A stretch of DNA of 64,000 bases from Chthoniobacterales bacterium (GTDB lineage Bacteria > Verrucomicrobiota > Verrucomicrobiia > Chthoniobacterales > UBA10450), in NCBI GenBank assembly GCA_038321775.1, contig JBBQFI010000014.1:536-64535 (forward strand). Reading direction: 5' to 3'. Below, piece after piece: positions 1 through 64,000 of the stretch. The translations under genes and the position numbers were made by a program. The notes below the pieces were generated by a model. It saw only the letters and a list, made by a program, of their open reading frames with translations. It did no database searches and had not been told where the DNA came from. Positions within the stretch are counted from its first letter, which is position 1. Each line of letters starts with the position of its first letter.

Positions 1-687
1 GCCATCGCTCGCGCCCACATAGCCAACCGAGCGGCGAATGAATTCCGGCGCGCAACCCATGACCAGATGCAGATCGTCGCGCCAGGCCCGTACCAAACTT
101 CGGCCGCCGTTGTTGCAGATCGCGGCGGAATTATGATACCCCTCGCGCTTGAGATGCGGCGCGAGCAAAACGAAGACGCGCAGCTTCTTCCCTAACGACT
201 TGTCGAGAATCTCCACCCGTGTGTGCATGAGCAGCACGGAGGAATGGGGATCGGTCGCGATTTCCTTGATGATGCGATAGCGCCCTTCGCGATCAGTATT
301 CGTTAGGCGATAAAGGAGCGCGCCGTCTTCCGGATACTCGATCTTGTGCTCGAGGTCGCGCCGTTCTTCGTGGCAAAAAGTTTCGCCATCGGTGATGAGA
401 AATTGCAGGTCGCGCGTGTTCGGCTGGTCGACATGCGGATAATAAATTTCATTGATGATCCCATGCGAAATGGTGAACCAAAGCCGGCAGCTCGAATGAT
501 AAGCCGTGCCGATTCCATCCTTCGCGCTCCGCGTCCAGCGCGGCTCCAAGCCCGGCGCCCCGAACGCGCCGCCGGGCGATTTGCCGCTGAGTTTGCGCCA
601 GACTTTTTCGCCCGCACGCTGGAGTTTCGTTTCGGGTGCGGGCGGCTCGTGCGGCACGGTGATGGGATCGGAGACTGGTGCAATCAT
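1..687 (-). CDS. Glycoside hydrolase family 15 glucoamylase-type enzyme, N-terminal part (gene continues past the left edge)
   Basis: Own translation of the minus strand from ATG at 687 stays open to position 1: MIAPVSDPITVPHEPP...GAPGLEPRWTRSAKDGIGTAYHSSCRLWFTISHGIINEIYYPHVDQPNTRDLQFLITDGETFCHEE. This is the typical N-domain of prokaryotic glucoamylases. It is absent from the ORF track because it has no stop in the window. Confidence 0.8.
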   Translation of the reverse strand, partial: MIAPVSDPITVPHEPPAPETKLQRAGEKVWRKLSGKSPGGAFGAPGLEPRWTRSAKDGIGTAYHSSCRLWFTISHGIINEIYYPHVDQPNTRDLQFLITDGETFCHEERRDLEHKIEYPEDGALLYRLTNTDREGRYRIIKEIATDPHSSVLLMHTRVEILDKSLGKKLRVFVLLAPHLKREGYHNSAAICNNGGRSLVRAWRDDLHLVMGCAPEFIRRSVGYVGASDG

Positions 688-825
688 GCAAGTCTTGTGA
701 GATCGACTGAGTGCAATTTATTCCCGCAGTTCCTCGCTAGGCGGAACGCTGGTGAGCGTCCGCTCGGAAACAAAAACCCGCCAACAGGAAAATGGATGAG
801 CGCGTAACATTTCGGTCCCACTTCA

Positions 826-3378
826 TCACAGACGCGGATCGACCGGCTCGCTTTCAAGGGCGAGAACTCCAAATACGCACTCATGCACGCGCCGGAGGGG
901 CTCGCGTTCGACGAACCGTTGGAGGGCTTCAACACCAAGTGCAAATTCGCGCAACGCAAGCGAGCGCTTGGCGGACAATCCGCGGGATCGCAGTCTCTCA
1001 AGGTTCGGCGGCGATGTATATTCGGGACCGTAGATGATGCGCAGGTATTCACGACCCCGGCATTTAACTGCCGGCTGAGTGATGCCGCGGCGCCCTTTCG
1101 CGACGAAGTTCAAAGGTTTCACCACCATCCCTTCGCCGCCGCGTTCAGTTAGCTCCTCCCACCAGCGGATTGCCGCGAGTTCACTTTCCGAATCGGTCAC
1201 ATTTACAAGGCGATATGGCGTCGGAAGTAGAAGCTCGGTGTCGGCTGCACAAATCTTCGCCAGCGTCTCCATATGCCAGACGTGATCTTTGTCGGTGAAG
1301 ACACCGCTCTCTGCCGCCAGTACATGAAACGGCGCGATCTTAAGATCAGAGACGGACGCGACCGGCCAGCAGTAGCCGCGATATGCTTCCACGTATTGAT
1401 CGACCATCGTCTTACGCTCGCGGTAGGCATCGAGTAACCCGCTGACCTCAAGTCCGTTTCCCTTCGCTTGTTCGAGCACGGCAATCGCCTCCGGTAAAGC
1501 AGCACGCGATGCCGCGCCAACAGCGGCATACTGCTGGCGGAGTAACTCCTGAGCTTTCGCCGACCACGGCATGAGTTCGCAGTCGAGGCAGACCCAGTCA
1601 GTTGTGAACTCGCTCCAGAAATTCGTCGCGTCGAGTGCTGCGCGCACGCGGCCGATCACCTCGCGTTCGACGACTTCATCGTCGAAGAAGCGCCGTCCGG
1701 TGCGCGTGTAACAGATCCCGCTTTCGCCAAGGACTCCGAACCGAGTGCGTGCTGCGTCTTCATCGCGGCAGATGACGAGAACCGCGCGCGAACCCATGTG
1801 CTTCTGCTCGCAAATGACCTGCGCGATTCCCTCGTGTCGATAGTAAGCAAATGCTTGAGCCGGATGTTCGAGCAGGCCTGGTTCCGTCGTCGTCTCCGTT
1901 GGCGACATCGTGGGCGGAAGATAGATGAGCCATTTGGGATTGGCGGCGAAGCGACTCATCACTTCCAAAGCCGCTATCGCGTTCTCTTCACGAATGGTGA
2001 CGTTGTGGTGCAGGCTCGTGGAAACGATCCGCTTCCCGAGGACATCATCCATGTCGAGCACGTCATCGAGCTGCTGTTGGCTCGTGAGTGGCGCTGTTCT
2101 TTCTGACGGAAGGAAGGGCTTAGCCGGAACGCAATAGGTCTCCGGCGCGGCTACCGAAACCAACTCCTTCTCCGGATATCTGAGGGCCGTGAGCTTTCCG
2201 CCGAACACGCAACCGGTGTCGATGTTGATCGTGCGGTTCAGCCATTCTGGCTCCGGTACGGGCGTGTGCCCATAGACCACCATTCCTCGTCCGCGGTAGT
2301 CGGCGGCCCAGTTATAGCGAACCGGTAATCCGAACTCGTCGTTCTCGCCTGTGGTTTCTCCGTAGAGGGCGAATTCACGCACACGACCGGAGCCGCGACC
2401 CTGCATCTCTTCCTTCATTCCGGCATGGGCAACGACAAGCCGGCCCTCGTCGAAGACGTAATGACTAACGAGTGCATCAATGAACTCCGCCGCCACCCGG
2501 CTGAACCCGTGATAACCCTGTTCGTAGTTCTCAAACTGCTGCAAGGACTCGGCGAGGCCGTGCTTGATCTGCACGTTCTTGCCCCAAACGGCTCGCATGA
2601 ACTTGATGTCATGATTGCCCGGAACACAGAACGCCTGGCCAGCTTTGACAGTTTCAATCGCGAGACGGACGACCTCCGGAATCTTCGGTCCGCGATCAAC
2701 GAGATCGCCGACAAAGATCAGCTTGCGCCTCTGTGGATGTAAATAGCTGCCGCCGGGCTGCGGTTCGTATCCGAGCTGCGCCAACAGCGTCACGAGTTCG
2801 TCGAAACATCCGTGGACATCGCCGATGATGTCGAAAGGACCGTGTTCGGTTCGGCGGTTATTCCAGAGCGGTTGACGCTCAACGACCGCAGCATCGACTT
2901 CCCCGGCGGATGACATCGTAAACGCATGTCGAAATCCTTCGCGTTGAAGTTTCCGCAGCGAGCGACGCAGTTGCTGGCTCTGCTGACGAATGACGTGAGG
3001 CCCAAACGTCCTGTCGGGTCGTCCGCTGTTGCGTTCCTGACAAAGTTTTTCAGGAAGGTCAAAGACGATAGCAACAGGCAGACAATGATATTGTCGCGCC
3101 AGCGCGACGAGCGGTTTGCGCGCCTCCTCCTGTACGTTCGTCGCATCTACGACAGTCAGTTTGGCCGCGGCGAGACGCTTCGAAGCAATGAAGTGTAACA
3201 CTTCGAAAGCATCTGTAGTCGCGGCTTGATTATTCTCATCATCCGACACCAATCCGCGGCAATAGTCCGACGAGAGAACCTCCGTCGGTTTGAAGTGCTG
3301 GCGCGCGAAGCTGGACTTGCCGGCACCAGAAGGGCCAATCAGTACAACAAGCGACAATTCAGGAAGTGTGATCTTCAT
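826..3378 (-). CDS. pnkp: Polynucleotide kinase-phosphatase (Pnkp): P-loop 5'-kinase, calcineurin-like 2',3'-phosphoesterase and C-terminal adenylyltransferase/ligase domains
   Basis: 850 aa. N-terminal Walker A (GPSGAGKSS), central metallophosphoesterase signatures (GDVHGC, GDLVDRG, GNHD), and a C-terminal ligase-like lysine motif (EQKHMGSR). It overlaps the upstream hen1 stop by 4 nt. Confidence 0.9.
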   Translation of the reverse strand: MKITLPELSLVVLIGPSGAGKSSFARQHFKPTEVLSSDYCRGLVSDDENNQAATTDAFEVLHFIASKRLAAAKLTVVDATNVQEEARKPLVALARQYHCLPVAIVFDLPEKLCQERNSGRPDRTFGPHVIRQQSQQLRRSLRKLQREGFRHAFTMSSAGEVDAAVVERQPLWNNRRTEHGPFDIIGDVHGCFDELVTLLAQLGYEPQPGGSYLHPQRRKLIFVGDLVDRGPKIPEVVRLAIETVKAGQAFCVPGNHDIKFMRAVWGKNVQIKHGLAESLQQFENYEQGYHGFSRVAAEFIDALVSHYVFDEGRLVVAHAGMKEEMQGRGSGRVREFALYGETTGENDEFGLPVRYNWAADYRGRGMVVYGHTPVPEPEWLNRTINIDTGCVFGGKLTALRYPEKELVSVAAPETYCVPAKPFLPSERTAPLTSQQQLDDVLDMDDVLGKRIVSTSLHHNVTIREENAIAALEVMSRFAANPKWLIYLPPTMSPTETTTEPGLLEHPAQAFAYYRHEGIAQVICEQKHMGSRAVLVICRDEDAARTRFGVLGESGICYTRTGRRFFDDEVVEREVIGRVRAALDATNFWSEFTTDWVCLDCELMPWSAKAQELLRQQYAAVGAASRAALPEAIAVLEQAKGNGLEVSGLLDAYRERKTMVDQYVEAYRGYCWPVASVSDLKIAPFHVLAAESGVFTDKDHVWHMETLAKICAADTELLLPTPYRLVNVTDSESELAAIRWWEELTERGGEGMVVKPLNFVAKGRRGITQPAVKCRGREYLRIIYGPEYTSPPNLERLRSRGLSAKRSLALREFALGVEALQRFVEREPLRRVHECVFGVLALESEPVDPRL

Positions 3379-4781: not shown

Positions 4782-4844
4782 TCGCGGTTGGTTTCTTCAT
4801 TCATACGAGACACCAAAACATCATTCAGAGACAGGGAGAAGGTC

Positions 4845-5015
4845 GCGCGCGATCTTTTATTGGGGCGACATCGACGCTCACGGATTCCTGATGCTGAGCC
4901 GCCTTCGTGAATCGTTCCCGCACGCCGCGCTGCGAAAGCGGGCTGACCGAGACGCGACTGCCTAACGAATTGAAATACGCCCGATTGCTGGAGGTGGCCC
5001 GCGCCGTCAGCTCAG
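4845..5015 (+). pseudogene. Remnant of a DUF2220/JetD-like (Wadjet Toprim-domain) gene, C-terminal fragment only
   Basis: ORF 4765..4965 encodes ...IFYWGDIDAHGFLMLSRLRESFPHA, resembling the conserved (F/Y)xGDxDxxGxxI/L core of the JetD/DUF2220 C-terminal domain. The roughly 300-aa N-terminal part is absent, and the reading frame appears to shift near 4930. Confidence 0.35.
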
Positions 5016-5018
5016 ATT

Positions 5019-5525: not shown

Positions 5526-5544
5526 TTTTTGACGAGGCGGAAAT

Positions 5545-5967: not shown

Positions 5968-6035
5968 AAATTTGTTTTTATTTTAGCAGCTCCTCCCACT
6001 GTTGAGAGCACGCAGAACGAATTTTATTGCAAGCG

Positions 6036-7191: not shown

Positions 7192-7557
7192 ATGCAACTC
7201 GAAGAGAGAAGCCATCCAAATTTTTTCATGAACGTGACCCATATTTTTGCAGCCGGCAGCGGCTTTCGTGTTCTCGAGACGACGGAGCGGAGTCAAACCG
7301 GTCTGCTCACACTCGAGCCGGGCGAATCCAGCAGCGAGAAGCCGAGCATACACAAGGATAGCGACCAGACGCTCATTCTCCTCGTCGGCGAACTGCGAGC
7401 GGAGATCGGTGACGAACAAGCCATACTAGAAGACGGAGACGCCGTGCTCGTTCCCGCGAAAACGCCACATCGATTTACTAATACCGGCAAAAGTCGCGCG
7501 ACTACGTTCAGCGTTTACGCGCGGCCCGCTTTTCCGCCTAACGAGCAGAGCGAATAA
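7192..7557 (+). CDS. Cupin-domain protein
   Basis: 121 aa with cupin-like motifs (HKDSDQTLILLVGEL ... GDAVLVPAKTPHRFTN). Confidence 0.7.
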   Translation: MQLEERSHPNFFMNVTHIFAAGSGFRVLETTERSQTGLLTLEPGESSSEKPSIHKDSDQTLILLVGELRAEIGDEQAILEDGDAVLVPAKTPHRFTNTGKSRATTFSVYARPAFPPNEQSE

Positions 7558-7579: not shown

Positions 7580-8089
7580 ATGCTTGCGTCCTCTTCCTTG
7601 CAGCCACCTTCTTCATCACGCGATGCTCTTAGCATTGGCAAAGCGATTGTCTTCGGGCTGGTCGCCGGTCTCGTCGCCAGCGGTGTCAAAACCATTTGCG
7701 AATTGATTTCACCGCCGCGGCTGCCCGGGGAACTGTCGCCGTTGGGGAAGATGATCGATTACGGTTCGGTCCTCGCGACTGGCGAACCGATGGCGGAGTC
7801 GGCCCGGAAACTGACCGAGCCTTTTGTGCATTTCGGTTTTGGCGCGGCTGCGGCCGCGATCTATGTCGTCGTCTCGGAACGTTTCCCGATTTTGCGCACG
7901 GGTTGCGGTTCACTTTTCGGCGTCTTGTTCTGGTTAGGCGTGCACGAAATCTTCTTGCCCCTGGCCGGGTTTTCCGCTTCGCCGGCCGTGATGACCTTCC
8001 GGGAACAAGGTAACGAATTTGTTTCGCACATTATTTTTGGCGTCACCGTTGAACTCGTTAGGCGCGGGCTGACCTGGAAATTGGCCTAA
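7580..8089 (+). CDS. DUF1440/YagU-like inner-membrane protein
   Basis: 169 aa with four hydrophobic segments and general similarity to the YagU family. The stop codon lies inside a copy of the 9-mer word. Confidence 0.45.
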   Translation: MLASSSLQPPSSSRDALSIGKAIVFGLVAGLVASGVKTICELISPPRLPGELSPLGKMIDYGSVLATGEPMAESARKLTEPFVHFGFGAAAAAIYVVVSERFPILRTGCGSLFGVLFWLGVHEIFLPLAGFSASPAVMTFREQGNEFVSHIIFGVTVELVRRGLTWKLA

Positions 8090-8092
8090 CGA
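8055..8092. repeat. Inverted pair of the abundant 9-mer (TCGTTAGGC ... GCCTAACGA) separated by 20 nt at the 3' end of the preceding gene
   Basis: ctcgttaggcgcgggctgacctggaaattggcctaacgatc read directly. The two arms are exact reverse complements and could form a 9-bp stem. Confidence 0.8.
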
Positions 8093-8125
8093 TCAAACGG
8101 TGCAGCGCGCGCGGCGTCTTGATTC

Positions 8126-9673
8126 ATGAACGCGAGTGATTCTTACGACGTAATTATCATCGGCACTGGTGCCGGTGGCGGCACGCTCGCGCGACGGCTC
8201 GCGCCGCGTGGGAAGCGAATTTTGATTCTCGAGCGCGGAGGTTTTCTGCCGCGCGAAAAAGAGAATTGGCAATCGAAGGAAGTGTTCCAAAAGATGCGCT
8301 ACCACACGAAGGAGGAGTGGCGTGATCGCGACGGCAAACCCTTCATGGCGCACACCGGTTACTTCGTCGGTGGGAACACAAAAGTTTATGGCGCCGCATC
8401 GTTCCGTTTGCGGGAGCGGGACTTCGAAACGGTGCAGCACAGGGGCGGCATCTCGCCGGAATGGCCGGTGAAGTATCGCGACTTCGAGCCGTATTACACC
8501 CAGGCCGAAGCGCTCTACGATGTCCACGGCAAACGCGGTGTCGATGAAACCGAACCGCCGATGAGCGCGGAATATCCGTTCCCACCCTTTGCGCATGAGC
8601 CGCGCATTCTCGAGCTGGCCGAACGGTTGCAGAAACGCGGACGCAATCCATTTCATTTGCCCCTCGCTCTGAAGCGCAACGAAGCCGATCCGCTCCACAG
8701 CCCATGCATTCGCTGCAATACCTGCGACGGTTTTCCCTGCCTGATCGATGCCAAGGCCGACGCCGATCTCAATGGCGTCCGGCCCGCGATGCAGAAAAGC
8801 AATGTGACGTTGCTCACGCACGCGCGGGTGAAAAAGATCCTAACGAATGGTTCCGCGCGCGAGGTCTCGACGGTAGAGACGGAGATCGACGGCGAGACGC
8901 ATCATTTTCGCGGCGACATCGTAGTCGTGGCGGCCGGCGCGATTAATTCCGCTGCGCTCCTGCTCGGGAGTGCGTCGGATAAACATCCGAACGGTCTGGC
9001 GAATTCCTCCGATCTGGTCGGCCGCAATTACATGCGACATCTGAACAGCGCGATCCTCGGTATGACGACCAAGAAGAATCCCACCGTTTTCCAAAAAACT
9101 CTGGCGATGAACGATTTTTACTGGGGCGATGACGACTTCCCGTTTCCCATGGGACACATCCAGCTCCTGGGAAAAACCGACCGAGGTATCATCGCGGGCG
9201 ACGCGCCTTTTTTCACGCCCGGCGTGGCGCTCGATGTCATGACCAAACATTCCGTCGATTGGTGGCTGACCGCGGAAGACCTGCCCGATCCGGAAAATCG
9301 CGTCACACTCACGCGCGACGGCCAGATTCAACTCAGCCAGCGCGATCGTTATCACGAACACTTCGATCGCCTGATCGCGCGTTGGACGGAAGAATTGAAA
9401 ACGGTCGATGCGATCGATCAGCTCATCCCGCTTTCGCTTTATCTGAAAAATAAAATCCCGCTGATGGGCGTGGCGCATCAAAACGGCACCTGTCGTTTCG
9501 GCGACGATCCGAAGACGTCGGTGCTGAATATTTTTTGTCAGGCGCACGACGTCGATAATCTCTACGTCGTCGATGGCAGTTTTTTCTGTTCGAGCGGCGC
9601 GGTCAACCCGTCGCTTACGATCGCAGCGAATGCGTTGCGCGTGGGCGATCACATCCTCGAGCGATTGGGATGA
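8126..9673 (+). CDS. GMC-family FAD-dependent oxidoreductase
   Basis: 515 aa. N-terminal FAD fold (YDVIIIGTGAGGGTLARRLA) and a GMC C-terminal region (VVDGSFFCSSGAVNPSLTI). Confidence 0.85.
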   Translation: MNASDSYDVIIIGTGAGGGTLARRLAPRGKRILILERGGFLPREKENWQSKEVFQKMRYHTKEEWRDRDGKPFMAHTGYFVGGNTKVYGAASFRLRERDFETVQHRGGISPEWPVKYRDFEPYYTQAEALYDVHGKRGVDETEPPMSAEYPFPPFAHEPRILELAERLQKRGRNPFHLPLALKRNEADPLHSPCIRCNTCDGFPCLIDAKADADLNGVRPAMQKSNVTLLTHARVKKILTNGSAREVSTVETEIDGETHHFRGDIVVVAAGAINSAALLLGSASDKHPNGLANSSDLVGRNYMRHLNSAILGMTTKKNPTVFQKTLAMNDFYWGDDDFPFPMGHIQLLGKTDRGIIAGDAPFFTPGVALDVMTKHSVDWWLTAEDLPDPENRVTLTRDGQIQLSQRDRYHEHFDRLIARWTEELKTVDAIDQLIPLSLYLKNKIPLMGVAHQNGTCRFGDDPKTSVLNIFCQAHDVDNLYVVDGSFFCSSGAVNPSLTIAANALRVGDHILERLG

Positions 9674-9725
9674 GGCTCGTGGCGCGGCGAACTCTTCCGG
9701 GTAGCGCACGCGTCTCGCATGCTGG

Positions 9726-9753: not shown

Positions 9754-9766
9754 CTCAGGCGTACCC

Positions 9767-11410
9767 ATGCTTCCTGTGCGAGCCATATTTAAAAAAGCCT
9801 GTTTCGGCGGGACGCCGAAACCAGCACGCGGGAGGCGCGCGCTACCCAGATGGGCCATCGGGGCGCTGGCATTCTTATTACCGTTCTCTTTGCGCGCCGC
9901 CGTGGAGGTCGCGGCGATCGAGATGAGCGTGTCCGATCTTCCTCGAGCAGTTGCGTTCTACACCGACACATTGCAATTCAAGTTAAAAGATGCGGACGAG
10001 TCGCGCGCGCGCCTTCAACTCGGCCAAGAAACGTTGGTCCTCCGCCACGCGGCGACGGAAGGACGGCCTATCCCGCGCGATTTACCCGCAAACGACCAAA
10101 CGTTCCAACATATCGCCATCGTGGTCGGCGACATCGACGCGGCTTATGCGCAACTGCAACGCCACCACGTGCAGCTCGTTTCTACTGGCGTGCAAACTTT
10201 GCCCAATTGGAATTTCGATGCGGCAAAGATCCGCGCGCTTTACTTCCGCGACCCGAACGGCCATTTCCTCGAATTGATTCACTTCCCGGCTAACAAAGGC
10301 GAACCGCGCTGGCATCGCCGGAGCGGTGCGCTTTTTCGCGGGATCGATCACTCTGCGGTCGTCGTCACCGAAATGAAACGCAGTCTCGCTTTCTACCGCG
10401 ACCAACTTGGTTTCACCGTCATCGGAAACAGTTTCAACTACGGCGGCGAACAGGAACTGCTGAGCGGTGTGGCGGGGGCGCGCGTGCGCATCACAAGTTT
10501 ACGCGGCGCCAAGGGTCCGGGGCTCGAACTTCTGCAATACGAAACGCCGGGCTCCACAAACATTCTCCGCAAAACATCTTCGCCTAACGACTTGTCACAT
10601 TGGCAAGTCGATCTCCTGACGACGCGACACGACATCGTCGGTGAACGCTCCGATCCGGACGGCCACGCCTTCGCGATCGAGCAACGACCGAGCGGCGCGG
10701 CCCGCGGCGAATATGCGATGGAAGCCTTGCGCCAGCATTGGCCGCGCTACCTGATGGAAGGCGCGGAGCTCGGCATCTTCATGATCGTCGCGTTGCTTCT
10801 CGCGCTCGTGTTGGAACATACGCGTTCGAGTTTGCATAAAGCGATCGGCTCTCCGCTGCTGCGCCGATTCTTCGTCGGCCTCGGCATCGGCGTCATGGTC
10901 GTGATCCTGATTTACTGCACGTGGGGCCGGCAATCGGGCGCGCAGTTCAATCCCGCAGTTACGCTCGCGATGCTTTACCTGCATCGCATCCAGCCGTGGG
11001 ACGCGTTCTTCTACATCATCGCCCAATTTCTCGGCGGATTGCTCGGCGTCCTAATAGCGGCAGCGCCGTTTTGGAAAGCGAGCAAGCATAAAAAAGTAAA
11101 TTTTGTCGTGACCGAGCCCGGTAAGCCGGGCGTCGCGGTTGGATTCGCAGCCGAATTCGTCATTTCATTTATTCTACTGGCGACGCTGCGACTCGTTTAT
11201 CACAGCGATTTGCTCAAACCGTCGCTCGGTTACTTCGCCGGATTTCTCCTCTGCCTTTACATTACCTTCGAGGCGCCGCTCTCCGGGATGAGTTTGAATC
11301 CCGCGCGCAGCGTCGCCTCCGCCATCCCGGCGAAAAGCTGGAAGGCGATGTGGATTTATTTCATCGCGCCGCTGCTCGCGATGTGGCTCGCGGCGAAGCT
11401 GTGCGGTTAG
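9767..11410 (+). CDS. Fusion protein: two glyoxalase/VOC-family domains plus a C-terminal MIP-family channel (aquaporin Z-like)
   Basis: Two VOC repeats (IEMSVSDLPRAVAFYTDTLQF... and IDHSAVVVTEMKRSLAFYRDQLGF...), then a 6-TM channel with both NPA boxes (GAQFNPAVT, GMSLNPARS). The start is uncertain: ATG 9767, or GTG 9902 immediately before the first VOC domain. 9719 is unlikely because it spans the terminator hairpin. Confidence 0.8.
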   Translation: MLPVRAIFKKACFGGTPKPARGRRALPRWAIGALAFLLPFSLRAAVEVAAIEMSVSDLPRAVAFYTDTLQFKLKDADESRARLQLGQETLVLRHAATEGRPIPRDLPANDQTFQHIAIVVGDIDAAYAQLQRHHVQLVSTGVQTLPNWNFDAAKIRALYFRDPNGHFLELIHFPANKGEPRWHRRSGALFRGIDHSAVVVTEMKRSLAFYRDQLGFTVIGNSFNYGGEQELLSGVAGARVRITSLRGAKGPGLELLQYETPGSTNILRKTSSPNDLSHWQVDLLTTRHDIVGERSDPDGHAFAIEQRPSGAARGEYAMEALRQHWPRYLMEGAELGIFMIVALLLALVLEHTRSSLHKAIGSPLLRRFFVGLGIGVMVVILIYCTWGRQSGAQFNPAVTLAMLYLHRIQPWDAFFYIIAQFLGGLLGVLIAAAPFWKASKHKKVNFVVTEPGKPGVAVGFAAEFVISFILLATLRLVYHSDLLKPSLGYFAGFLLCLYITFEAPLSGMSLNPARSVASAIPAKSWKAMWIYFIAPLLAMWLAAKLCG

Positions 11411-11923: not shown

Positions 11924-13852
11924 TTATTCCCGCCACTTCGAGGCGTTGGAAACGAACAGCACCGCGGTTTTCGGCACCCGGAAAAGTCCCGCGATCACAC
12001 CTTTCCATCCGATAGTGGGGCCGACGCTGCGTTCGAATTTTTCGTGATCGGGCAACGCGTGAAACCCGCGTTTCTTTTTCGCGTTCTCCAGATTCAGAAT
12101 CGTCTGGATCAAACCGAGATGCGAAAAAGCCTGCGGAAAATTCCCGAGAAATTCGCCACTCTCGGGATCGATTTCTTCCGAATAAAGACCGAGCGGACTG
12201 GCGAGTTTGATGATGGCCTCGAGCATCTCTTCCGCACGAGCGAGATGGCCTTCACGGATCAGATGATCGATGCACCAGAAGCTGCAAATCAGGAACGCGC
12301 CTTCTTTCCCCGGCATTCCTTCCGTCCGATAAAAAAGCGGACCGCGCCCGAGCTCGCGCTCAATCGCTTCGCGCGTCGGCCGGGCCGGGTGCACGTCGAG
12401 AAAACCAGTGGTGAAAGCGAGCAGGCTGGAAACGTCGAGTGAAGCCGCGTCCATTTTTGCCGAGAGGATCTGGGCGCCGTCTTTCGTCACCAAACCGTGA
12501 TCGAGGACCTCGCGGCGTATTTCTCCGCAGACTTTTTCCAGCTCGCCATCATCGTCACCGAGGAGTTCGCGCGCCCGTTGCAACGCGATCCAGCACATGA
12601 TTTTCCCATAGGTGAACTGGCTCGTTTCACGCACTTCCCAAATGCCGTTATCGGCGCGGCGCCAGAAGCGCTTCGCTTCATCGGTCAGACGCGTGAGCAT
12701 CTTGCGTTTGTCGCCATCGATCTTGCCGCCGGTATGCCGGAAAAAATAAAACGACTGCAGGACGTGGCCGTAATTATCGAGCTGAAATTGCCCGAGCGCG
12801 CCATTGCCAAGGCGCACCGGTTCGGAATCGGCATAACCGGCGAGATGATCGAGATTGGTTTCCGGCGGGATGGGCGCATCGCAAACAGGGTAGAGGACAT
12901 CGACGCTCGATTGTTCGTTAGGGGCTTCCGCTTTCTCCTTTCGCTCCATCCATTTCCTGACCGCGAAATTAAGAAAAGCGTTTGCTTCGCCGGAATAACC
13001 GAGGCCGAAGAGCGTTTGAATAAAAAGCGCGGTATCGCGCAACCAGGTGTAGCGATAATCCCAGTTCAATTCTCCGCCCGCTTTTTCGGGAAGCGAGGTG
13101 GTGGGTGCGGCGACAAACCCGCCGGTCGCAGCGTAGGTGAGTAATTTCAAAGTCACCGCGCTCCGCCTAACGATCTCCTGATGCGGGCCACGATAGTAAT
13201 TGAAGAGATTCCATTCGCGCCAGAACGCCGTCGTTACGCGCAGCCATTCGCGAACGCTCGCGAGATCGGGCCAGCGTTGGTCGTCGCTGTAGTCGAGCAC
13301 AGCGTAAAACGGTTCGTTCGGCGCGACGACGAAATTGCCTAACAAGTCATCATCGCTCGTTTCGATCGGCACGTTGCTATAAAATGTGGCTGCCTCCATC
13401 TCGAAGCCGCCGTCGTAGCAGCGGTGCCAGGAGGCGGCTTTCCGCGCATACGATGGTCGCGCGCTTACCCGCATTCGCATGGCCACGCGCGCGCCGTCTT
13501 CAGCTTCGAGCAGGCGCACCAGTTTGCGCGTCGGATGCAAAGTGGTGAAGTCGTAAAAGCGCGCTTTGCGCGCTCGCGCGATCACGAAAAAATCGGTTAG
13601 CCTAACGACACCTTCGGCCGTGATGAAGCGTGTCTCCAGGATGGCGCTGTCTTCGCGATATTTTCGCTCGACGCGAAATGGCTTCACCGGCGAAAGCGCA
13701 AAGCTTCCGCCTTTTTCCTCGTCGAGCAGCGCGGCGAAAACCGAGCCGGCATCGAACGCCGGCAAACAAAGCCAATCGATATCGCCCTGCGGCCCGATCA
13801 ACGCCGCCGTTTCGCAATTGCCGATGAGCGCGTAATCGCGGATCGGCGTCAT
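11924..13852 (-). CDS. Glycoside hydrolase family 15 protein (glucoamylase/trehalase-like)
   Basis: IRDYALIGNCETAALIGPQGDIDWLCLPAFD N-terminus typical of GH15. The start is taken at the internal ATG 13852, giving a 4-nt overlap with the upstream gene. Confidence 0.85.
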   Translation of the reverse strand: MTPIRDYALIGNCETAALIGPQGDIDWLCLPAFDAGSVFAALLDEEKGGSFALSPVKPFRVERKYREDSAILETRFITAEGVVRLTDFFVIARARKARFYDFTTLHPTRKLVRLLEAEDGARVAMRMRVSARPSYARKAASWHRCYDGGFEMEAATFYSNVPIETSDDDLLGNFVVAPNEPFYAVLDYSDDQRWPDLASVREWLRVTTAFWREWNLFNYYRGPHQEIVRRSAVTLKLLTYAATGGFVAAPTTSLPEKAGGELNWDYRYTWLRDTALFIQTLFGLGYSGEANAFLNFAVRKWMERKEKAEAPNEQSSVDVLYPVCDAPIPPETNLDHLAGYADSEPVRLGNGALGQFQLDNYGHVLQSFYFFRHTGGKIDGDKRKMLTRLTDEAKRFWRRADNGIWEVRETSQFTYGKIMCWIALQRARELLGDDDGELEKVCGEIRREVLDHGLVTKDGAQILSAKMDAASLDVSSLLAFTTGFLDVHPARPTREAIERELGRGPLFYRTEGMPGKEGAFLICSFWCIDHLIREGHLARAEEMLEAIIKLASPLGLYSEEIDPESGEFLGNFPQAFSHLGLIQTILNLENAKKKRGFHALPDHEKFERSVGPTIGWKGVIAGLFRVPKTAVLFVSNASKWRE

Positions 13853-16687: not shown

Positions 16688-17111
16688 TAGCTTTTTAACA
16701 AAGCCAGAAACGATCAGGGTTTGTGTCCGCAAAAACCGGAAGAGATTCACACCTCTTCAGACGCCACGTGTGTCTGATCGAACCGACAATCCGTCCTTCT
16801 AAAAAAAATTCTATGCTGAAAACGCTGTTCTCGCCTAACGAATTCTGCGCAGACTTGCGCCGTAATCGTAGATCGGGGAACAGTGTTCACCGAGTCCCCT
16901 CGCCTCTTCCCTCCTACAGTCCCGAATTTTCCTCGTCCTCCTTAGCAAGGACACACCGCGAATTAAAAAAGCAGGATCGGTTCTTTTTCCCGAACCTCAA
17001 TTTGTTCTCGACCTCGCGCTTCAGAAGCGGCGACTCGAGACCTCGCAGCTCGCAAGCAGCGACATCATCGAATCGCAGCGAGGAAAAACGGCGAAGTCAT
17101 CATAATCAAAT

Positions 17112-17510: not shown

Positions 17511-17519
17511 TCGTTTCGC

Positions 17520-18521
17520 CTAACGAGTCTCGTCGCCTTTAAAAATGTGGAAGAGGAAATAGAGCGACGGCAGGAGAAGGATGGCGCCGGCGCCGAGAGC
17601 GATGATGAGCAGTCGCAACGTCGCCTGTGGCGCAGCGCTGTTCGCGAAAGTCAGGTCAGGCGTCACAAAGTTTGGATACTGGGCCAGACTCCAACCTGAC
17701 AAAATCAACACGACCTGACCAATCGCAGCGATGCGCGCGAAGACATAGCGACGGCGCCAAAGCGCGATGAGCGCGGCGACGGCAAAGCAGCTCGTCCAGC
17801 CTAACAAGAGCGGCGCCCACCATCGCGTCAGGCCGTCGAAAATATCGGGCGCGTCTTTTCGCGCGGTGAGAAATGCAATGAGCGCAATCGGCGCAAGCGT
17901 AAGCCCGGACCAAATCGCGCGCTGTCGAAAGTCGTTTTGTAATTCCGGGTCGTCGCTGGTATCGACCGTCAGATAAGTCGCGGCGAGAAACGCGAAGAGA
18001 GCGACGGCGAAAATTCCGCAGACAAAAGCGAACGGCGTCAGCCAGCCCGCCAGGAAGCCGCTCGTTAGTTTTCCATCAACGATTCGGATGTTTCCGGTCG
18101 CGAGTGCGCCCACGGTGATGCCTTCGACAAACGGCGTGAAAAAACTCGAGACGCCAAACAAGACGCTCCAGCGCCGTTGCACGACGGCGACATCGCGATC
18201 GTATTTGCGAAAGACAAACGCGGAACCGCGCAGAACGATTCCGATCAGGATGAGGGTAAACGGAATGTTGAGCGCGGTCATCATCGCGGAAAATGCCGGC
18301 GGAAATCCGGTGAAGAGCAAAACGATAACGAGAATGAGCCAAACGTGATTCGCTTCCCAGATCGGGCCGATGGCCTCGGCGATTGCTTCCTTTTGTCGCT
18401 GCGCGCGCGGACCGGTTGCCAGGAAATCCCACATTCCGCCGCCAAAATCCGCGCCGCCCATGAGCGCGTAAATCACGAGCGAAACCACCATGAAAAACGC
18501 GACGATTAATTCCAGAGTCAT
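17520..18521 (-). CDS. cydB: Cytochrome bd ubiquinol oxidase subunit II
   Basis: 333 aa polytopic protein with a CydB-like N-terminus (YALMGGADFGGGMWD). Overlaps cydA by 4 nt. Confidence 0.9.
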   Translation of the reverse strand: MTLELIVAFFMVVSLVIYALMGGADFGGGMWDFLATGPRAQRQKEAIAEAIGPIWEANHVWLILVIVLLFTGFPPAFSAMMTALNIPFTLILIGIVLRGSAFVFRKYDRDVAVVQRRWSVLFGVSSFFTPFVEGITVGALATGNIRIVDGKLTSGFLAGWLTPFAFVCGIFAVALFAFLAATYLTVDTSDDPELQNDFRQRAIWSGLTLAPIALIAFLTARKDAPDIFDGLTRWWAPLLLGWTSCFAVAALIALWRRRYVFARIAAIGQVVLILSGWSLAQYPNFVTPDLTFANSAAPQATLRLLIIALGAGAILLLPSLYFLFHIFKGDETR

Positions 18522-22679: not shown

Positions 22680-22752
<73 letters not shown>

Positions 22753-30553: not shown

Positions 30554-30570
30554 TTCCTCGTTAGGCGCAA

Positions 30571-47995: not shown

Positions 47996-48038
47996 AGCTT
48001 CAGACGCGAAAGAGCGCGGTCGCGCCTAACGAGTTGAA

Positions 48039-50033
48039 TCAACTCAGAGGCAACCAATTTCCCGGTTGCGGCAATGGCTTGCTCCCGTTCAGGGAAAGAT
48101 AAGTGTATTCCTGGAGAAGACGCTCGTAGTCCGAGAGCAATTTCATTCCGTCATTAGGCTTTAAGCGATCGGTTTTAATCGCGGTATCAACCTGTGTTTT
48201 TAGCAACCGCATTAGCTCGACTTTGTCCCATTGCGTCATGGAAAGCACTTCTCCGATCGTGCTGCCTTCGATCACTTCTTCAATGTACCAACCGGATTCC
48301 TCGTCCGGATCGAGAAAGACATGCACTTCGGTAACGCGGCCAAACAAATTGTGCAGATCCCCCATGATGTCCTGATAAGCCCCCACCATGAAGACACCGA
48401 GGTAATAAAGCTCCCCGGGAGTGATGCGATGCAAAGGCAATGTGTACTTCACATCCTGCAGGTCGATGAATTTCGAGACCTTGCCATCGGAGTCGCAAGT
48501 AATGTCCACGATCATGCCATTACGGTCCGGGGCAGTCGTTAGACGATGAATCGGCATGATAGGAAACAGTTGCCCCAGGGCCCAATGATCGAGAAGGGAT
48601 TGAAAGACAGAAAAGTTGCAGATGTATTGATCGCCTAACGAGATCTCAAGTTCCTTCACTTCTTCCGGAACGAAACGCAGACCGCGATGCATGTTCACGA
48701 TTTGCTGCGCAAGCTGCCAGTAAACCGTATCGATCTTCGCTTTCGACTCGAGATCGAGCAGCCCAAGATCGAAAGTTTGCTGCGACTCTTCCTTGATCTG
48801 TTGAATGTCGTGCAAACTCTCGATGCGATTGCCGCGCTTGAGACGCTGTTTCACATCGAGAATGTCAGCGACAAGCTTGTGATCTTTCTCCGCGACTTCG
48901 ACCTTCAACTTCGGCGCCGTTTTTTCGATGGAGCTGAATGCTTCAACGACCAGGACGGAATGGTGCGCCACGATTGCGCGCCCGCCCTCGCTCACGATCG
49001 CCGGATGCGGAATACCCTCAGAATCGCAAACGTCGGCAATATTCCAGACGACGTCGTTGGCATATTCCTGGAGCGAATAATTTGTTGAGCTATCGAAATC
49101 GCTGCGTGAACCGTCGTAATCGACACCAAGTCCGCCGCCCACGTCGAGATAACCGAGATCGTGCCCGAGCTTGGCGAGTTTGGTGTAATAACGAGCGGCT
49201 TCGCGAACGGCGCGCTTGATCGTGGAAATATCCGGCACCTGCGAACCGACATGGAAATGGACGAGCTTGAGACAATGCGAAAGCCCAGCCGTTTTCAACA
49301 TCTCGCTCGCCGCGACCAGACTCGTGGTGTCGAGACCGAACTTCGCGTTCTCGCCGCCGCTCGGCGACCATTTCCCCGATCCTTTACTGTAGAGACGAAC
49401 GCGAATGCCGATGTGCGGTTCGACGCCGACTTCCTGGGCGGCGCGGATTGTTTGTTCGAGTTCCTCCAGTTTTTCGACAACGATGATAACGGACTTGCCG
49501 AGTTTACGTCCGAGAAGCGCAATGCGAATGAACGCGCGATCTTTGTAGCCGTTGCAAATGATCAAACTTTCCGGGTCCTTGTGCATGGCCAGCGCCGCGA
49601 CCAATTCCGGTTTGCTCCCGGCTTCGAGACCGAAGTGGAATTGCGCGCCGGCATCGACGATCTCTTCAATCACTTCGCGCAATTGGTTGACCTTGATCGG
49701 AAAAACGCCGCGATAAACGTTTTTGTAACTGAATTCGGTCATCGCGTTCTCGAACGCGCAATTGACTGCTTCCACGCGGTGACGCAGCAAATCCTGAAAC
49801 CGAATCACGAGCGGAAAACCGAGCCCGCGAATGCGCGCTTCGTTGACTACTTCAAGCAGATCAATGGAACCGCCTTTTTCCTGGAGCGGCCGCGCCACGA
49901 CATTGCCCGCCGCGTTGACGGTAAAGTAATCACCACCCCAGCGATCGACGTTGTAAGTCGCGATCGCGGCTTCCACGTCCCATTCATTTTTTATTTTTTC
50001 CGGGGCTGGCACGGTAGCAATGCGCATCATCAA
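48039..50033 (-). CDS. speA: Biosynthetic arginine decarboxylase
   Basis: 664 aa. YNVDRWGGDYF N-terminus, a PLP lysine region (VFPIKVNQ) and LDVGGGLGVDYDG. Confidence 0.9.
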   Translation of the reverse strand: MMMRIATVPAPEKIKNEWDVEAAIATYNVDRWGGDYFTVNAAGNVVARPLQEKGGSIDLLEVVNEARIRGLGFPLVIRFQDLLRHRVEAVNCAFENAMTEFSYKNVYRGVFPIKVNQLREVIEEIVDAGAQFHFGLEAGSKPELVAALAMHKDPESLIICNGYKDRAFIRIALLGRKLGKSVIIVVEKLEELEQTIRAAQEVGVEPHIGIRVRLYSKGSGKWSPSGGENAKFGLDTTSLVAASEMLKTAGLSHCLKLVHFHVGSQVPDISTIKRAVREAARYYTKLAKLGHDLGYLDVGGGLGVDYDGSRSDFDSSTNYSLQEYANDVVWNIADVCDSEGIPHPAIVSEGGRAIVAHHSVLVVEAFSSIEKTAPKLKVEVAEKDHKLVADILDVKQRLKRGNRIESLHDIQQIKEESQQTFDLGLLDLESKAKIDTVYWQLAQQIVNMHRGLRFVPEEVKELEISLGDQYICNFSVFQSLLDHWALGQLFPIMPIHRLTTAPDRNGMIVDITCDSDGKVSKFIDLQDVKYTLPLHRITPGELYYLGVFMVGAYQDIMGDLHNLFGRVTEVHVFLDPDEESGWYIEEVIEGSTIGEVLSMTQWDKVELMRLLKTQVDTAIKTDRLKPNDGMKLLSDYERLLQEYTYLSLNGSKPLPQPGNWLPLS

Positions 50034-54391: not shown

Positions 54392-55177
54392 TTACATTTG
54401 AAAACGTTCGCCGAGATAAAGCTGGCGACTGATCGGATCGTTGATCAGAAAATCTTTTGTTCCTTCGCTCTCGACGCGTCCTTCGAAGATGAGATAAGCG
54501 CGATCAACAATGGAAAGCGTCTCACGCACGTTGTGATCGGTGATCATAATGGCGAGGCCCGATTTCCGCAGATTGACGATGATCTGCTGCACATCGTAAA
54601 CGGCGATCGGATCGACGCCGCTGAACGGTTCATCGAGCATGAGTAATTTCGGCTCCGTCACCAGCGAACGCGCGATGGTGAGCCGGCGTTTTTCGCCACC
54701 GCTCAAAGTCAGCGCCTGATTTTTTGCGATGCGTTCGATTCCAAATTGATGCAGCAATTGATCGCAACGATTTCGCCGTTCCGATTTGCTCATGGGCAAG
54801 GTTTCAAGAATCGCGAGGATGTTTTGTTCCACCGTCATCTTGCGAAAGATCGATTCTTCCTGGGGCAAATAACCCATGCCCAGACGCGCGCGCTTAAACA
54901 TCGGATATCTCGTCACGTCGGTTCCGGAAAACGTGACGGTCCCGCTATTGGGCCTAACGAGTCCGACAATCATGTAGAAGCTCGTCGTTTTGCCGGCGCC
55001 GTTCGGACCAAGCAATCCCACGATTTCGTTGCTGCGAACGTTGATATTGATCCCGTTCACAACCGCACGGCCGCCATAAATTTTCACGAGTTGATCCGTG
55101 ACCAAAACATTTTCCGCCTTCGCCGATTGCTGCGGTGCTGGGCCTGGCGTGGTCGCCGGCAGTGTTCCGGTCGTCAT
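54392..55177 (-). CDS. lptB: LPS export ABC transporter ATP-binding protein
   Basis: Walker A GPNGAGKTT, signature LSGGEKRRL, Walker B LLMLDEP, and an LptB-type C-terminus (YLGERF). Confidence 0.9.
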   Translation of the reverse strand: MTTGTLPATTPGPAPQQSAKAENVLVTDQLVKIYGGRAVVNGININVRSNEIVGLLGPNGAGKTTSFYMIVGLVRPNSGTVTFSGTDVTRYPMFKRARLGMGYLPQEESIFRKMTVEQNILAILETLPMSKSERRNRCDQLLHQFGIERIAKNQALTLSGGEKRRLTIARSLVTEPKLLMLDEPFSGVDPIAVYDVQQIIVNLRKSGLAIMITDHNVRETLSIVDRAYLIFEGRVESEGTKDFLINDPISRQLYLGERFQM

Positions 55178-56372: not shown

Positions 56373-57210
56373 GGATAGCCCTTAACATGCGAAGGTGCTT
56401 CGGCAACTGCTTTAGCGGAATCTGATTCGCGCCATCCGAGAGCGCGCGCGCCGGGTTTTCGTGCACCTCGAGAAAAATTCCATCGCAACCGGCCGCCACC
56501 GCCGCGCGCGCCAGCACTGGTGCGAGTTTGCCGTCGCCCGATGTCGCATCTCCCGCTCCACCTGGTCGCTGCACAGAATGCGTCGCGTCGAAAATCACGC
56601 GGTATCCCGACTCGCGCATCCAGTAAAGCGAACGCATGTCGGCCACGAGATTATTATAACCGAACGTTGTTCCGCGTTCGGTGAAAAGGAACTTTTCGTT
56701 ACCGAACTCGGTTAATTTCTCGGCGATGTTCCGCACGTCCCACGGCGCGAGAAATTGGCCTTTCTTCACGTTGATAGGCCGGCCTGTTTCCGCCGCCGCT
56801 TTTAACAGATCTGTTTGGCGGCAGAGGAACGCCGGGATTTGCAGCAAATCGATTTTTTCGCCGGCGATCTCCGCTTCCTCGGGCGAATGCACATCCGTTG
56901 TCACCGGAATTTTAAATTCCTTTCCGATTGCAGCGAGCATTTCGCAGCCTTCGCGCACACCAATTCCACGATAAGAGCGCACCGATGTCCGATTCGCTTT
57001 GTCGTAGGAAGCTTTGAAGATGAACGGCACGGATTCTTGGGCGCAAATCTCCGAAATACGCTGCGCCATTCGCCTAACGAACCGTTCCGACTCGATCACG
57101 CAAGGACCGAGAATAAACGCGAGTTCCTTTCCGCCGATCGAGACGTCTTGAATTTTAAGCGGCTTAGACTTCACGATAATAAATTGTAGGGAGGCTGTAT
57201 CAGCCGCCAA
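56356..57210 (-). CDS. kdsA: 3-deoxy-8-phosphooctulonate (KDO-8-P) synthase
   Basis: 284 aa. GPCVIES, KASYDKANR, QIPAFLCRQTDL and DATHSVQ motifs. Confidence 0.9.
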   Translation of the reverse strand: MAADTASLQFIIVKSKPLKIQDVSIGGKELAFILGPCVIESERFVRRMAQRISEICAQESVPFIFKASYDKANRTSVRSYRGIGVREGCEMLAAIGKEFKIPVTTDVHSPEEAEIAGEKIDLLQIPAFLCRQTDLLKAAAETGRPINVKKGQFLAPWDVRNIAEKLTEFGNEKFLFTERGTTFGYNNLVADMRSLYWMRESGYRVIFDATHSVQRPGGAGDATSGDGKLAPVLARAAVAAGCDGIFLEVHENPARALSDGANQIPLKQLPKHLRMLRAIHATVS

Positions 57211-63128: not shown

Positions 63129-63763
63129 TGCTGAAATCAGCTCCTCGTTTTCTCGCTCTCGCTACTGGCGCTTTCGGGCTTTTGCTCCTTGTCGTTTCCT
63201 GCGCGACTCCTGTCGATACGGCGCATCGTGTCGTCATCAGTATTCCGGAACAAAAGATGGCTGTCTTAGACAAAGGCGTTCCCCTTGCCACTTATCCGGT
63301 TTCGACTTCGAAATTTGGCCTCGGGGATGCGGCCGGACGATGGGGCACTCCTCTTGGCAAAATGGAAGTGGCGACAAAAATCGGAGACGCAGCTCCAATT
63401 GGAGCAGTTTTCAAGGATCGCCGCCTGACGGGCGAAGTCATTCCCGTAGATGCTCCGGGACGAGATCCCATCGTAACACGCATCTTGTGGCTACGTGGCA
63501 CAGAGCCGCAAAATCAAAATGCGTATCGACGTTTCATTTATATTCACGGAACGCCGGAAGAGCGAAACATTGGATTCCCGGTGAGCTATGGCTGCGTGCG
63601 CATGCGGTCACGCGACGTCGCACAGCTCTACGAGACGATCGGCATTGGCGCTGAGGTCTCGATCGTGAATACGACGCTACACGCGGTCGTTCCAGCGGTG
63701 CTTCCGCCTGGCGGTCGTTTAGCGCTGATGAAGGAACCGTTCGCCGGCGCCATCGCTCGTTAG
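63128..63763 (+). CDS. L,D-transpeptidase (YkuD-domain) lipoprotein
   Basis: Lipobox LLVVSC and a catalytic region IHGT...SYGCVRM. The stop codon is embedded in a copy of the 9-mer word. Confidence 0.85.
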   Translation: MLKSAPRFLALATGAFGLLLLVVSCATPVDTAHRVVISIPEQKMAVLDKGVPLATYPVSTSKFGLGDAAGRWGTPLGKMEVATKIGDAAPIGAVFKDRRLTGEVIPVDAPGRDPIVTRILWLRGTEPQNQNAYRRFIYIHGTPEERNIGFPVSYGCVRMRSRDVAQLYETIGIGAEVSIVNTTLHAVVPAVLPPGGRLALMKEPFAGAIAR

Positions 63764-63777
63764 GCGAATTGCTTCGC

Positions 63778-64000
63778 TCAAGGCAGCTTGCCGAGACGTT
63801 TTTGCGGGCCGCGGTGCGAAAGTGTCTCCATATCCGCGTCAACCATGATGCGAACCAATTCATGGAAACGCACTTTCGGTTCCCAATCGAGAATCTTCTT
63901 CGCTTTCGTGGCGTCCCCGATGAGCAAATCCACTTCCGCGGGCCGCTCGTAACGGTCGTCATGTTTCACGTACTCTTTCCAATCCAGATCAACGTGAGCA
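63778..64000 (-). CDS. gmd: GDP-mannose 4,6-dehydratase, C-terminal part (gene continues past the right edge)
   Basis: Own translation reads ...AHVDLDWKEYVKHDDRYERPAEVDLLIGDATKAKKILDWEPKVRFHELVRIMVDADME..., and the frame is open to position 64000. Confidence 0.8.
   Translation of the reverse strand, partial: AHVDLDWKEYVKHDDRYERPAEVDLLIGDATKAKKILDWEPKVRFHELVRIMVDADMETLSHRGPQKRLGKLP

Follow-up and report, generated by a model that had tools for sequence, protein, structure and literature searches.

A hyper-abundant nine-base word in soil Chthoniobacterales, a candidate DNA uptake or self-recognition signal

For decades, only two families of Proteobacteria have been known to take up DNA in a sequence-specific manner. 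The uptake signal sequence (USS) of the Pasteurellaceae has the 9-bp core AAGTGCGGT, or ACAAGCGGT in its Apl type, and the DNA uptake sequence (DUS) of the Neisseriaceae is GCCGTCTGAA, accompanied by its dialects and by the receptor ComP. A preprint of October 2025 describes such DNA uptake-enhancing sequences (DUES), known only from Neisseriaceae and Pasteurellaceae, as words of 9-10 nt present in hundreds to thousands of copies, which may amount to as much as about 2% of the chromosome, are limited by stop-containing frames, gather at permissive sites and form dialects between related lineages; about half of the DUES, and most of their inverted pairs, have been published as lying in predicted terminators. 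Here we analyse a stretch of 64,000 nucleotides from a Chthoniobacterales bacterium (GenBank assembly GCA_038321775.1, contig JBBQFI010000014.1, positions 536 to 64,535 of the forward strand), which at its full length we call the window, and the short word scattered through it, the 9-mer TCGTTAGGC, with the 8-mer TCGTTAGG that it contains. Judged by its genomic signature, this appears to be a hyper-abundant word of the USS/DUS type, maintained at the level of DNA, in a phylum new to such sequences.

A pattern search finds 37 exact copies of TCGTTAGG in the window, 18 on the plus and 19 on the minus strand, 30 of which extend to the full TCGTTAGGC (reverse complement GCCTAACGA; the word is asymmetric and non-palindromic). 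These are exactly the counts given by an earlier note on this DNA, and its coordinates stand as well, all except three: a minus-strand copy placed at 48644 is really at 48634, and the variants TCGCTAGGC and TCGTTAGA(C), placed at 733 and 48537, are at 734 and 48536. The two words are the commonest 8-mer and the commonest 9-mer of the window. Dinucleotide shuffles of the window yield 1.08 copies of TCGTTAGG and 0.40 of TCGTTAGGC, with none of 100 shuffles coming near the observed counts, and Markov models of orders 1-3 predict 0.8-1.4 and 0.3-0.5 copies, respectively. At order 5 and above the expectation rises to the observed count, but such models are uninformative because the sub-words on which they are built derive mostly from the word itself. 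Of two controls proposed in the earlier note, that based on a maximal-order Markov model is therefore circular here, and we relied instead on orders 1-3 and on the other, the shuffling of synonymous codons, which bears out the excess. Performed within genes, with proteins and per-gene codon usage kept and with intergenic and stop-codon copies left untouched, this shuffle leaves a mean of 7.1 copies, that is, about one coding copy where about 29 are observed.

For wider comparison, related genomes were examined as pieces of about 20 kb, referred to below by their locus labels. The observed/expected ratio (O/E) of TCGTTAGGC is about 80 in the window and 80-120 over the window and its word-rich relatives, and its density, 0.58 per kb in the window, is 0.5-1.6 per kb in loci L005, L028, L029 and L023, the last being the highest. 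The word makes up 0.5% of the DNA of the window and 1.4% of that of L023, shares that fall inside what has been given for DUES; extrapolated, the local density would correspond to thousands of copies per genome. It is also sharply defined, with eight invariant positions and few forms that carry one mismatch: these are scarce in the window (0-4 each), TTGTTAGGC, a C-to-T variant, occurring three times. In a logo of 141 pooled sites, information is confined to nine bases, the ninth being C in 80% of cases, and the flanks, followed over 25 nt on either side, display faint preferences only at -1, 0 and +11. The flanks being uninformative, the word does not belong to a repetitive extragenic palindrome (REP), a miniature inverted-repeat transposable element (MITE) or any longer repeat, as the earlier note had also held. 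With REP sequences, bacterial interspersed mosaic elements and MITEs it shares its many dispersed copies; those elements, however, are longer, structured, intergenic and conserved in their flanks, whereas here we have nine nucleotides that lie within coding sequence in about 80% of cases, and we reject an assignment to that class.

The position of the copies with respect to genes was established with gene calls made anew and checked with Pfam, one missed gene, 39156-40313 on the minus strand, being added. Relative to transcription, 18 copies are sense and 15 antisense. In sense the word is read as S-L-G (nine copies), V-R (seven) or R-stop (two, where it provides the stop codons of cydB and of a YkuD gene), in antisense as P-N (seven), L-T (seven) or A-stop (one), and four copies are intergenic; the tally of the earlier note is reproduced exactly. 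All four stop-free frames are used, while the stop-containing frames are found only at gene ends, in three copies. With four frames on both strands in use, the word is not a protein motif, and that reading, against which the note had already argued, is rejected. The copies are the following, with coordinates, strand and context:

190..198, minus: copy (TCGTTAGGg), sense S-L-G, glucodextranase-like gene 1-717(-)
300..308, plus: copy of TCGTTAGGC, antisense L-T, same gene 1-717(-)
4960..4968, minus: intergenic copy, between hen1 (3375-4781, minus) and the VKOR gene (5019-5525, minus)
7536..7544, minus: copy, antisense P-N, cupin gene 7192-7557(+)
8055..8063, plus: copy, sense V-R, DUF1440 gene 7580-8089(+), left arm of the only inverted pair of the window
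8084..8092, minus: copy, A-stop, its TAA ending gene 7580-8089(+), right arm of hairpin 8045-8101
8838..8846, minus: copy (TCGTTAGGa), antisense L-T, GMC oxidoreductase gene 8126-9673(+)
10582..10590, minus: copy, antisense P-N, glyoxalase-MIP gene 9719-11410(+)
12915..12923, plus: copy (TCGTTAGGg), antisense P-N, glucoamylase gene 11924-13909(-)
13165..13173, minus: copy, sense V-R, glucoamylase gene 11924-13909(-)
13600..13608, minus: copy, sense V-R, glucoamylase gene 11924-13909(-)
16833..16841, minus: intergenic copy, downstream of the tmRNA gene (17109-17466, minus)
17518..17526, minus: copy, R-stop, its TAG ending cydB 17520-18521(-)
19020..19028, plus: copy, antisense P-N, cydA 18518-19834(-)
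21005..21013, minus: copy (TCGTTAGGt), antisense L-T, sulfotransferase gene 20692-21837(+)
22210..22218, minus: copy, antisense P-N, sulfotransferase gene 21839-22654(+)
23689..23697, plus: copy (TCGTTAGGg), sense V-R, STAND-WD40 gene 22854-27503(+), in the 5.3-kb insertion at tRNA-Phe
24283..24291, plus: copy, sense V-R, STAND-WD40 gene 22854-27503(+)
24576..24584, plus: copy, sense S-L-G, STAND-WD40 gene 22854-27503(+)
25860..25868, plus: copy, sense S-L-G, STAND-WD40 gene 22854-27503(+)
27477..27485, plus: copy, sense S-L-G, 19 nt before the stop of the STAND-WD40 gene
27578..27586, minus: copy, antisense L-T, open reading frame (ORF) 27541-28038(+)
27932..27940, minus: copy, antisense L-T, ORF 27541-28038(+)
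29204..29212, plus: copy, sense S-L-G, guaA 28970-30553(+)
30558..30566, plus: intergenic copy, between the guaA stop and the start of the FHA gene
31306..31314, plus: copy (TCGTTAGGg), sense S-L-G, FHA gene 30571-31434(+)
32629..32637, plus: copy, antisense P-N, methyltransferase gene 32511-33536(-)
32887..32895, plus: copy, antisense P-N, methyltransferase gene 32511-33536(-)
34958..34966, plus: copy, antisense L-T, DUF1573 gene 34335-35057(-)
39741..39749, minus: copy, sense S-L-G, dTDP-glucose dehydratase-like gene 39156-40313(-)
41443..41451, plus: copy (TCGTTAGGt), sense S-L-G, PMT_2 glycosyltransferase gene 40102-41877(+)
45647..45655, plus: copy, antisense L-T, PHP gene 45507-46310(-)
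48024..48032, minus: intergenic copy, just downstream of the arginine decarboxylase gene 48039-50033(-)
48633..48641, minus: copy, sense S-L-G, arginine decarboxylase gene 48039-50033(-)
54952..54960, minus: copy, sense V-R, lptB-like ABC ATPase gene 54392-55177(-)
57072..57080, minus: copy, sense V-R, DAHP_synth_1 (kdsA-like) gene 56356-57210(-)
63757..63765, plus: copy, R-stop, its TAG ending the YkuD gene 63128-63763(+)

The word is maintained at the level of DNA against codon usage and, in relatives, even against the conservation of amino acids. It requires codons that are rare here, TTA and CTA representing 7% and 4% of leucine codons and AGG 3% of arginine codons, and 7 of the 40 AGG codons of the window fall within it. 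Among the 84 peptide contexts of the window where synonymous choice would permit the 8-mer, 30 contain it; occupancy reaches 9/14 for S-L-G and 7/10 for P-N-[D/E], where codon frequencies give estimates of about 2% and about 7%. The inference drawn in the earlier note from rare codons, that selection bears on the DNA itself, agrees with these frequencies, with the near disappearance of coding copies under synonymous shuffling and with the occupancy of permissive contexts.

Between word-rich genomes, the sites themselves persist. L023 and L029 are about 74% identical in DNA, yet L029 retains exactly 7 of the 11 alignable sites of L023, and L023 retains 7 of 8 when the comparison starts from L029, against 13% for background 8-mers; comparisons of word-rich with word-poor genomes show no such excess, with 0 of 5 and 1 of 4 sites kept. 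The guaA gene illustrates how copies come and go. At its S-L-G site (29204), the window and nine relatives have TCGTTAGG(C); others use TCGCTCGGC and similar sequences for the same peptide, or display one-base decays such as TCGCTAGGC, TCGTTGGGC and TCTTTAGGC. In the densest genomes, L023 and L029, guaA has two extra copies that were obtained through amino-acid changes in conserved motifs: EIVRF, present in nearly all relatives, has become EIVRH, which provides the ninth base, and LPKEI has become LPNEI. A force acting on DNA and overriding protein conservation in this way has been reported for the USS. New copies arise through point substitutions at any place where the coding sequence can accommodate them, and are then retained over long divergence.

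The organism from which the window comes belongs to the Chthoniobacterales (Verrucomicrobiota), and is Udaeobacter-like. Relatives of its GuaA in species-representative genomes are all from soil or peat Chthoniobacterales, at 85% amino-acid identity or less, and they include metagenome-assembled genomes (MAGs) of 'Candidatus Udaeobacter'; the exact GuaA and PtsI sequences of the window match no recorded protein. Among the relatives, the word is the most frequent 8-mer of L023 (34 copies in 21.6 kb), L029 (19; this locus comes from a complete chromosome of 4.02 Mb, OZ244652.1), L028 (11) and L005 (10 in 12.3 kb), and the relatives read it in the same four frames as the window does. Most other loci of the Udaeobacter-like clade have 1-6 copies where about 0.3 are expected. 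In outgroups (Chthoniobacter, Spartobacteria, Terrimicrobiaceae and other Verrucomicrobiota) and in 40 loci from other phyla we found no copy of the 9-mer and single copies only of the 8-mer. A scan of metagenomes with CydA returned best matches at 76% amino-acid identity or less, among which only L081, L083 and L092 carry the word. It is lineage-specific, and confined to a family-level clade of soil Chthoniobacterales.

Within that clade other words are found. Two loci suggest one-base dialects, on counts that are small: L012 contains TCGTTAGCC five times (at 1048, 2435, 4010, 11090 and 12354) and TCGTTAGGC not once, and L019 contains TCGTTAGGG, the GGG form, four times, against two for the GGC form. 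A second and unrelated word, CAAGATCGACA, that is, (C)AAGATCGACA(A/T), is present in L026, L027, L006 and L015, and its sub-words in L008 and L011. Its 45 sites in the first four loci are distributed 19 to 26 over the plus and minus strands and occupy at least four frames (K-I-D, D-R, S-I and V-D); 3 of 5 to 3 of 6 of them are kept between L026 and L027, against a background of 18%. The window contains a single copy, at 60445-60453, which is the chance level. Between L081 and L083, metagenome contigs of one species that are 98.9% identical, one site of each word is polymorphic (TCGTTAGG/TTGTTAGG and GATCGACA/GATCGACG). Elements of another kind were seen in L016 (181/243, 15607/15672 and 21437/21501) and in L038 (10928/10981 and 15698/15749), where close inverted pairs with conserved flanks give GGTAGGGCG... 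and TTGTAGCCGCGAA...; they look like repeats of the REP type, unlike the 9-mer.

A quantitative comparison with established uptake sequences is possible, as the over-representation of USS and DUS has been published according to mismatch load (Bakkali 2007, PMC1939737). Expressed as O/E-1 at 0, 1 and 2 mismatches, with an order-1 Markov expectation for our own data, the profiles are:

USS of H. influenzae (published, PMC1939737): 183, 2.0 and 0.22
DUS of N. gonorrhoeae (published, PMC1939737): 392, 4.8 and 0.65
TCGTTAGGC in the window: 81, 0.83 and -0.31
TCGTTAGGC in five word-rich sequences, pooled: 118, 1.5 and -0.22
TCGTTAGGC in outgroups: -1, -0.5 and -0.25

The steep fall of TCGTTAGGC with mismatch load matches the published shape of USS and DUS, and the second word yields 177, 4.2 and 0.25. 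The resemblance to the USS goes further, as we have in both cases an asymmetric core of 9 bp at about one copy per kb in both orientations, mainly intragenic, in frames that avoid stops, shaping the choice of codons and amino acids, with positions kept between related species, types at the family level and a near-equal mismatch profile; here, in contrast, the word belongs to another phylum, is unrelated in sequence and lacks the AT-rich phased flanks. With the DUS it has in common that it is short and exact, is present in thousands of copies (extrapolated, in our case), may have one-base dialects, and occurs in a clade equipped with type IV pilus machinery.

Competent Gram-negative bacteria take up DNA by means of retractile type IV pili. 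Two of the word-rich loci, L005 and L028, encode two adjacent type IVa pilus retraction ATPases of the PilT/PilU family a few kb upstream of guaA (4190-6451 and 843-3101, respectively), with scores of 448 and 348 bits in L005 and of 443 and 354 bits in L028, for an NCBIfam cut-off of 319. A signature search identified the same pair in L001, L002, L003, L008 and L037. The pair is not in the window, where the synteny around guaA is therefore rearranged. L016 and L021 have two ATPases of the PilB/GspE type, and L016 also has a prepilin.

We can understand TCGTTAGGC best, in our analysis, as a signal for DNA uptake or self-recognition, a reading to which we give a probability of about one in two. 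The earlier note had suggested that the word fits a DNA uptake sequence; the density, length, mismatch profile, family-level conservation and dialects do match those of USS and DUS. In such a process the cell would expose, on a retractile type IV pilus, a surface DNA receptor with affinity for double-stranded DNA that bears the word, so that uptake and recombination would favour the word-bearing DNA of kin over other DNA. In the long run this bias in uptake and mutation would together raise the word to high density, a molecular drive in which selection for exchange within the lineage might help. A change of receptor in sublineages would result in a variant (TCGTTAGCC, TCGTTAGGG) or in an unrelated word (CAAGATCGACA), and where the uptake bias was lost, the word would decay.

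A number of observations weigh against this interpretation. PilT and PilU also serve twitching motility, and because of this their presence is permissive but does not decide the matter; gene calls and Pfam reveal no pilus or competence gene within the 64-kb window, and regular expressions for DprA and ComEA signatures returned nothing from the roughly 0.8 Mb of clade loci, a result of little weight as these cover two neighbourhoods only. The link of DUES with terminators does not have its counterpart here, since one hairpin pair is found among 37 copies, about 80% of which are intragenic, and L023 has one convergent pair (9406/9442). L081 and L083 carry both unrelated words, at about 0.4-0.5 per kb each; some sister lineages have the second word, at times, as in these two, in the same genome as the first, a situation unlike that of the DUS, and from known uptake systems no coexistence of two unrelated words has been described. 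Nor does the uptake model account for the uneven density between the halves of the window: permissive sites are occupied to 47% in 1-35 kb and to 18% in 35-64 kb, and the word falls from 0.89 per kb (1-35000) to about 0.2-0.3 per kb (35001-64000). Finally, sequence-specific processes other than uptake would lead to drive at the level of DNA and to conservation of sites as well, HIP1 (highly iterated palindrome 1) of cyanobacteria being an example.

HIP1 (GCGATCGC), for which similar properties have been reported and whose function is still unknown, leads to the first alternative: the word would be recognized, independently of uptake, by a DNA methyltransferase or a repair activity specific to this sequence, for example an orphan asymmetric methyltransferase coupled to a correction of the very-short-patch type that turns near-cognates into the word, which would then be a by-product or a landmark for repair or recombination. 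HIP1 is likewise a hyper-abundant exact word within genes, lineage-specific and kept up at the level of DNA, and our scan, run on the lone cyanobacterial locus L077 as a positive control, returns it as the top word, with 44 copies in 21.6 kb. DNA-level drive, site conservation above background and lineage specificity need not be specific to uptake, and two modification systems would easily explain two words in one genome (L081, L083), the second of which contains GATC and TCGA. Yet HIP1 is palindromic and overlaps methylation sites, while TCGTTAGGC is asymmetric and we see no link to methylation; the methyltransferases of the window are of the small-molecule type only, none being a suitable DNA methyltransferase. 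Very-short-patch repair is known to cause only a modest over-representation, and an excess of about 100-fold is too large for it. Products of C-to-T deamination are not depleted (TTGTTAGGC, three copies), though on counts too small to decide. On balance we find this explanation unlikely.

The same holds, somewhat more strongly, for a dispersed binding site, the second possibility offered in the earlier note, selected copy by copy for an abundant chromosomal protein, be it nucleoid-associated, involved in chromosome organization, or a self-marking factor that keeps a nuclease or defence system away from the cell's own DNA. A sharply defined 9-mer would suit a monomeric sequence-specific binder, the sites are kept between word-rich genomes, and regional differences in density recall the sites specific to macrodomains. 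However, parS, matS, the sites of Noc and SlmA, and DnaA boxes number tens to hundreds per genome, far from the thousands extrapolated here, and we know of no dispersed binding sites that reshape codon usage or amino acids genome-wide. An occupancy of 36-70% of permissive contexts resembles a saturating drive and not selection site by site, and unrelated words in sister lineages would demand the repeated joint replacement of all sites. We regard such a binding site as rather improbable.

Much less likely still is a recombination hotspot of the Chi kind, recognized by RecBCD or AddAB and kept in excess through its role in chromosome protection and repair. As with Chi and the FtsK-orienting polar sequences (KOPS), we have an asymmetric, over-represented, lineage-specific word of 8-9 nt, and in the window its orientation falls into local blocks: 4 plus and 12 minus copies between 191 and 22218, 14 and 3 between 23689 and 45655, 1 and 4 between 48024 and 63765, independently of gene direction. 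These blocks were picked after seeing the data, however, and the number of runs (16, for 19.5 expected) is not significant. The word is without local strand polarity, at 18:19 in the window, where GC skew does not change sign, and at 13:21 in L023, in stretches of 20-64 kb only. The earlier note had taken balance on the chromosome and with respect to transcription (18:15) as arguing against a polar signal of the Chi/KOPS type, and on these counts we reject that reading too. Known Chi sites lie to about 75% on one strand, and neither they nor KOPS exceed expectation by more than a few fold, far below the roughly 100-fold seen here; Chi is not known to force amino-acid changes, and the density of the word is 3-8 times that of Chi in E. 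coli.

That there might be no real feature at all, only an artefact of composition or codon usage, a protein motif or the pieces of a longer repeat, can be dismissed: Markov models of order 5 and above do 'predict' the counts, but circularly, while orders 1-3 and both the dinucleotide and the synonymous shuffles all give about one copy, four frames are used on two strands, the flanks carry no information, and MAGs obtained independently by different projects contain the word, which outgroups lack.

The window is otherwise an ordinary piece of chromosome. It encodes Pnkp/Hen1 RNA-repair proteins, a glucoamylase, cytochrome bd oxidase, tmRNA, two tRNAs and a STAND-WD40 protein, then guaA, aat, genes of the rhamnose pathway, arginine decarboxylase, ptsI, HPr and hprK, and further lptABC, a kdsA-like gene, plsX, fabH and tatD. 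Its poorer second half is where the core genes ptsI, hprK, lptB, plsX and fabH are located, the core stretch from 48 to 64 kb being poor in the word; GC content drops from about 0.58 to about 0.53 near 28 kb. The Rfam families found in the window are tmRNA (17109-17466, minus strand, with the tag peptide ADHQDLALAA) and one tRNA only, tRNA-Phe(GAA) being at 22678-22752 on the minus strand, and the word is part of no known RNA. A tRNA-Leu(GAG) at 46432-46512 on the plus strand, 100% identical to a stretch of L022, is missed by Rfam at its gathering threshold and was found by ARAGORN.

Two regions stand apart in their content of the word. In about 20 of 23 relatives tRNA-Phe sits 60-260 nt from aat; here a lineage-specific insertion of 5.3 kb (22854-28038) separates them, and this is the densest part of the window, with seven copies (1.35 per kb). 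It encodes a 1549-residue nSTAND1 NTPase with WD40 propellers and an ORF without a family match. A dense insertion is what one would expect if acquired DNA came preferentially from word-bearing relatives. The Pnkp/Hen1 operon (826-4781, 4 kb), which comprises PNKP ligase, kinase and phosphatase and the Hen1 methyltransferase and is patchily distributed, has no copy of the word and uses none of its five permissive sites, though it lies in the dense half.

As to RNA structure, copies 8055 and 8084 form a hairpin at 8045-8101, at the end of the DUF1440 gene, with a folding energy of -23.1 kcal/mol (z of -2.9 against shuffles). It is an inverted repeat, ACCGTTGAACTCGTTAGGC ... GCCTAACGATCAAACGGT, the arms of which exceed the copies of the word, and it is not followed by a run of T. 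Six intergenic or stop-codon contexts were folded, and five of them do no better than shuffles; with only this pair folding significantly, we reject a role of the word in hairpins or terminators.

In a literature search we came across no account of this word, of uptake sequences from Verrucomicrobia or of a competent Udaeobacter, the raw word leading to primers and unrelated matches, in agreement with the earlier note, which knew of no such word in this kind of organism. Tentatively, then, we may be dealing with a third, independently evolved system of DNA uptake or self-recognition, the first outside Proteobacteria, in uncultured and globally abundant soil Chthoniobacterales, the sublineages of which would switch between dialects or unrelated words (TCGTTAGGC, TCGTTAGCC, CAAGATCGACA) and sometimes use two at once. 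As a simple sequence tag, the word could serve for binning contigs, for spotting foreign DNA in these genomes and for designing DNA that would be taken up, and since it varies between sublineages, co-variation could, as in a natural experiment, point to the receptor. Should it not be an uptake signal, we still have a new force, strong enough to alter amino acids in a conserved enzyme. If it is, natural transformation would be frequent, and would discriminate in favour of kin, in a dominant lineage of the soil; recognition of self DNA would have evolved at least a third time, and we would have the first evidence that these abundant and mostly uncultured soil bacteria exchange genes by natural transformation.

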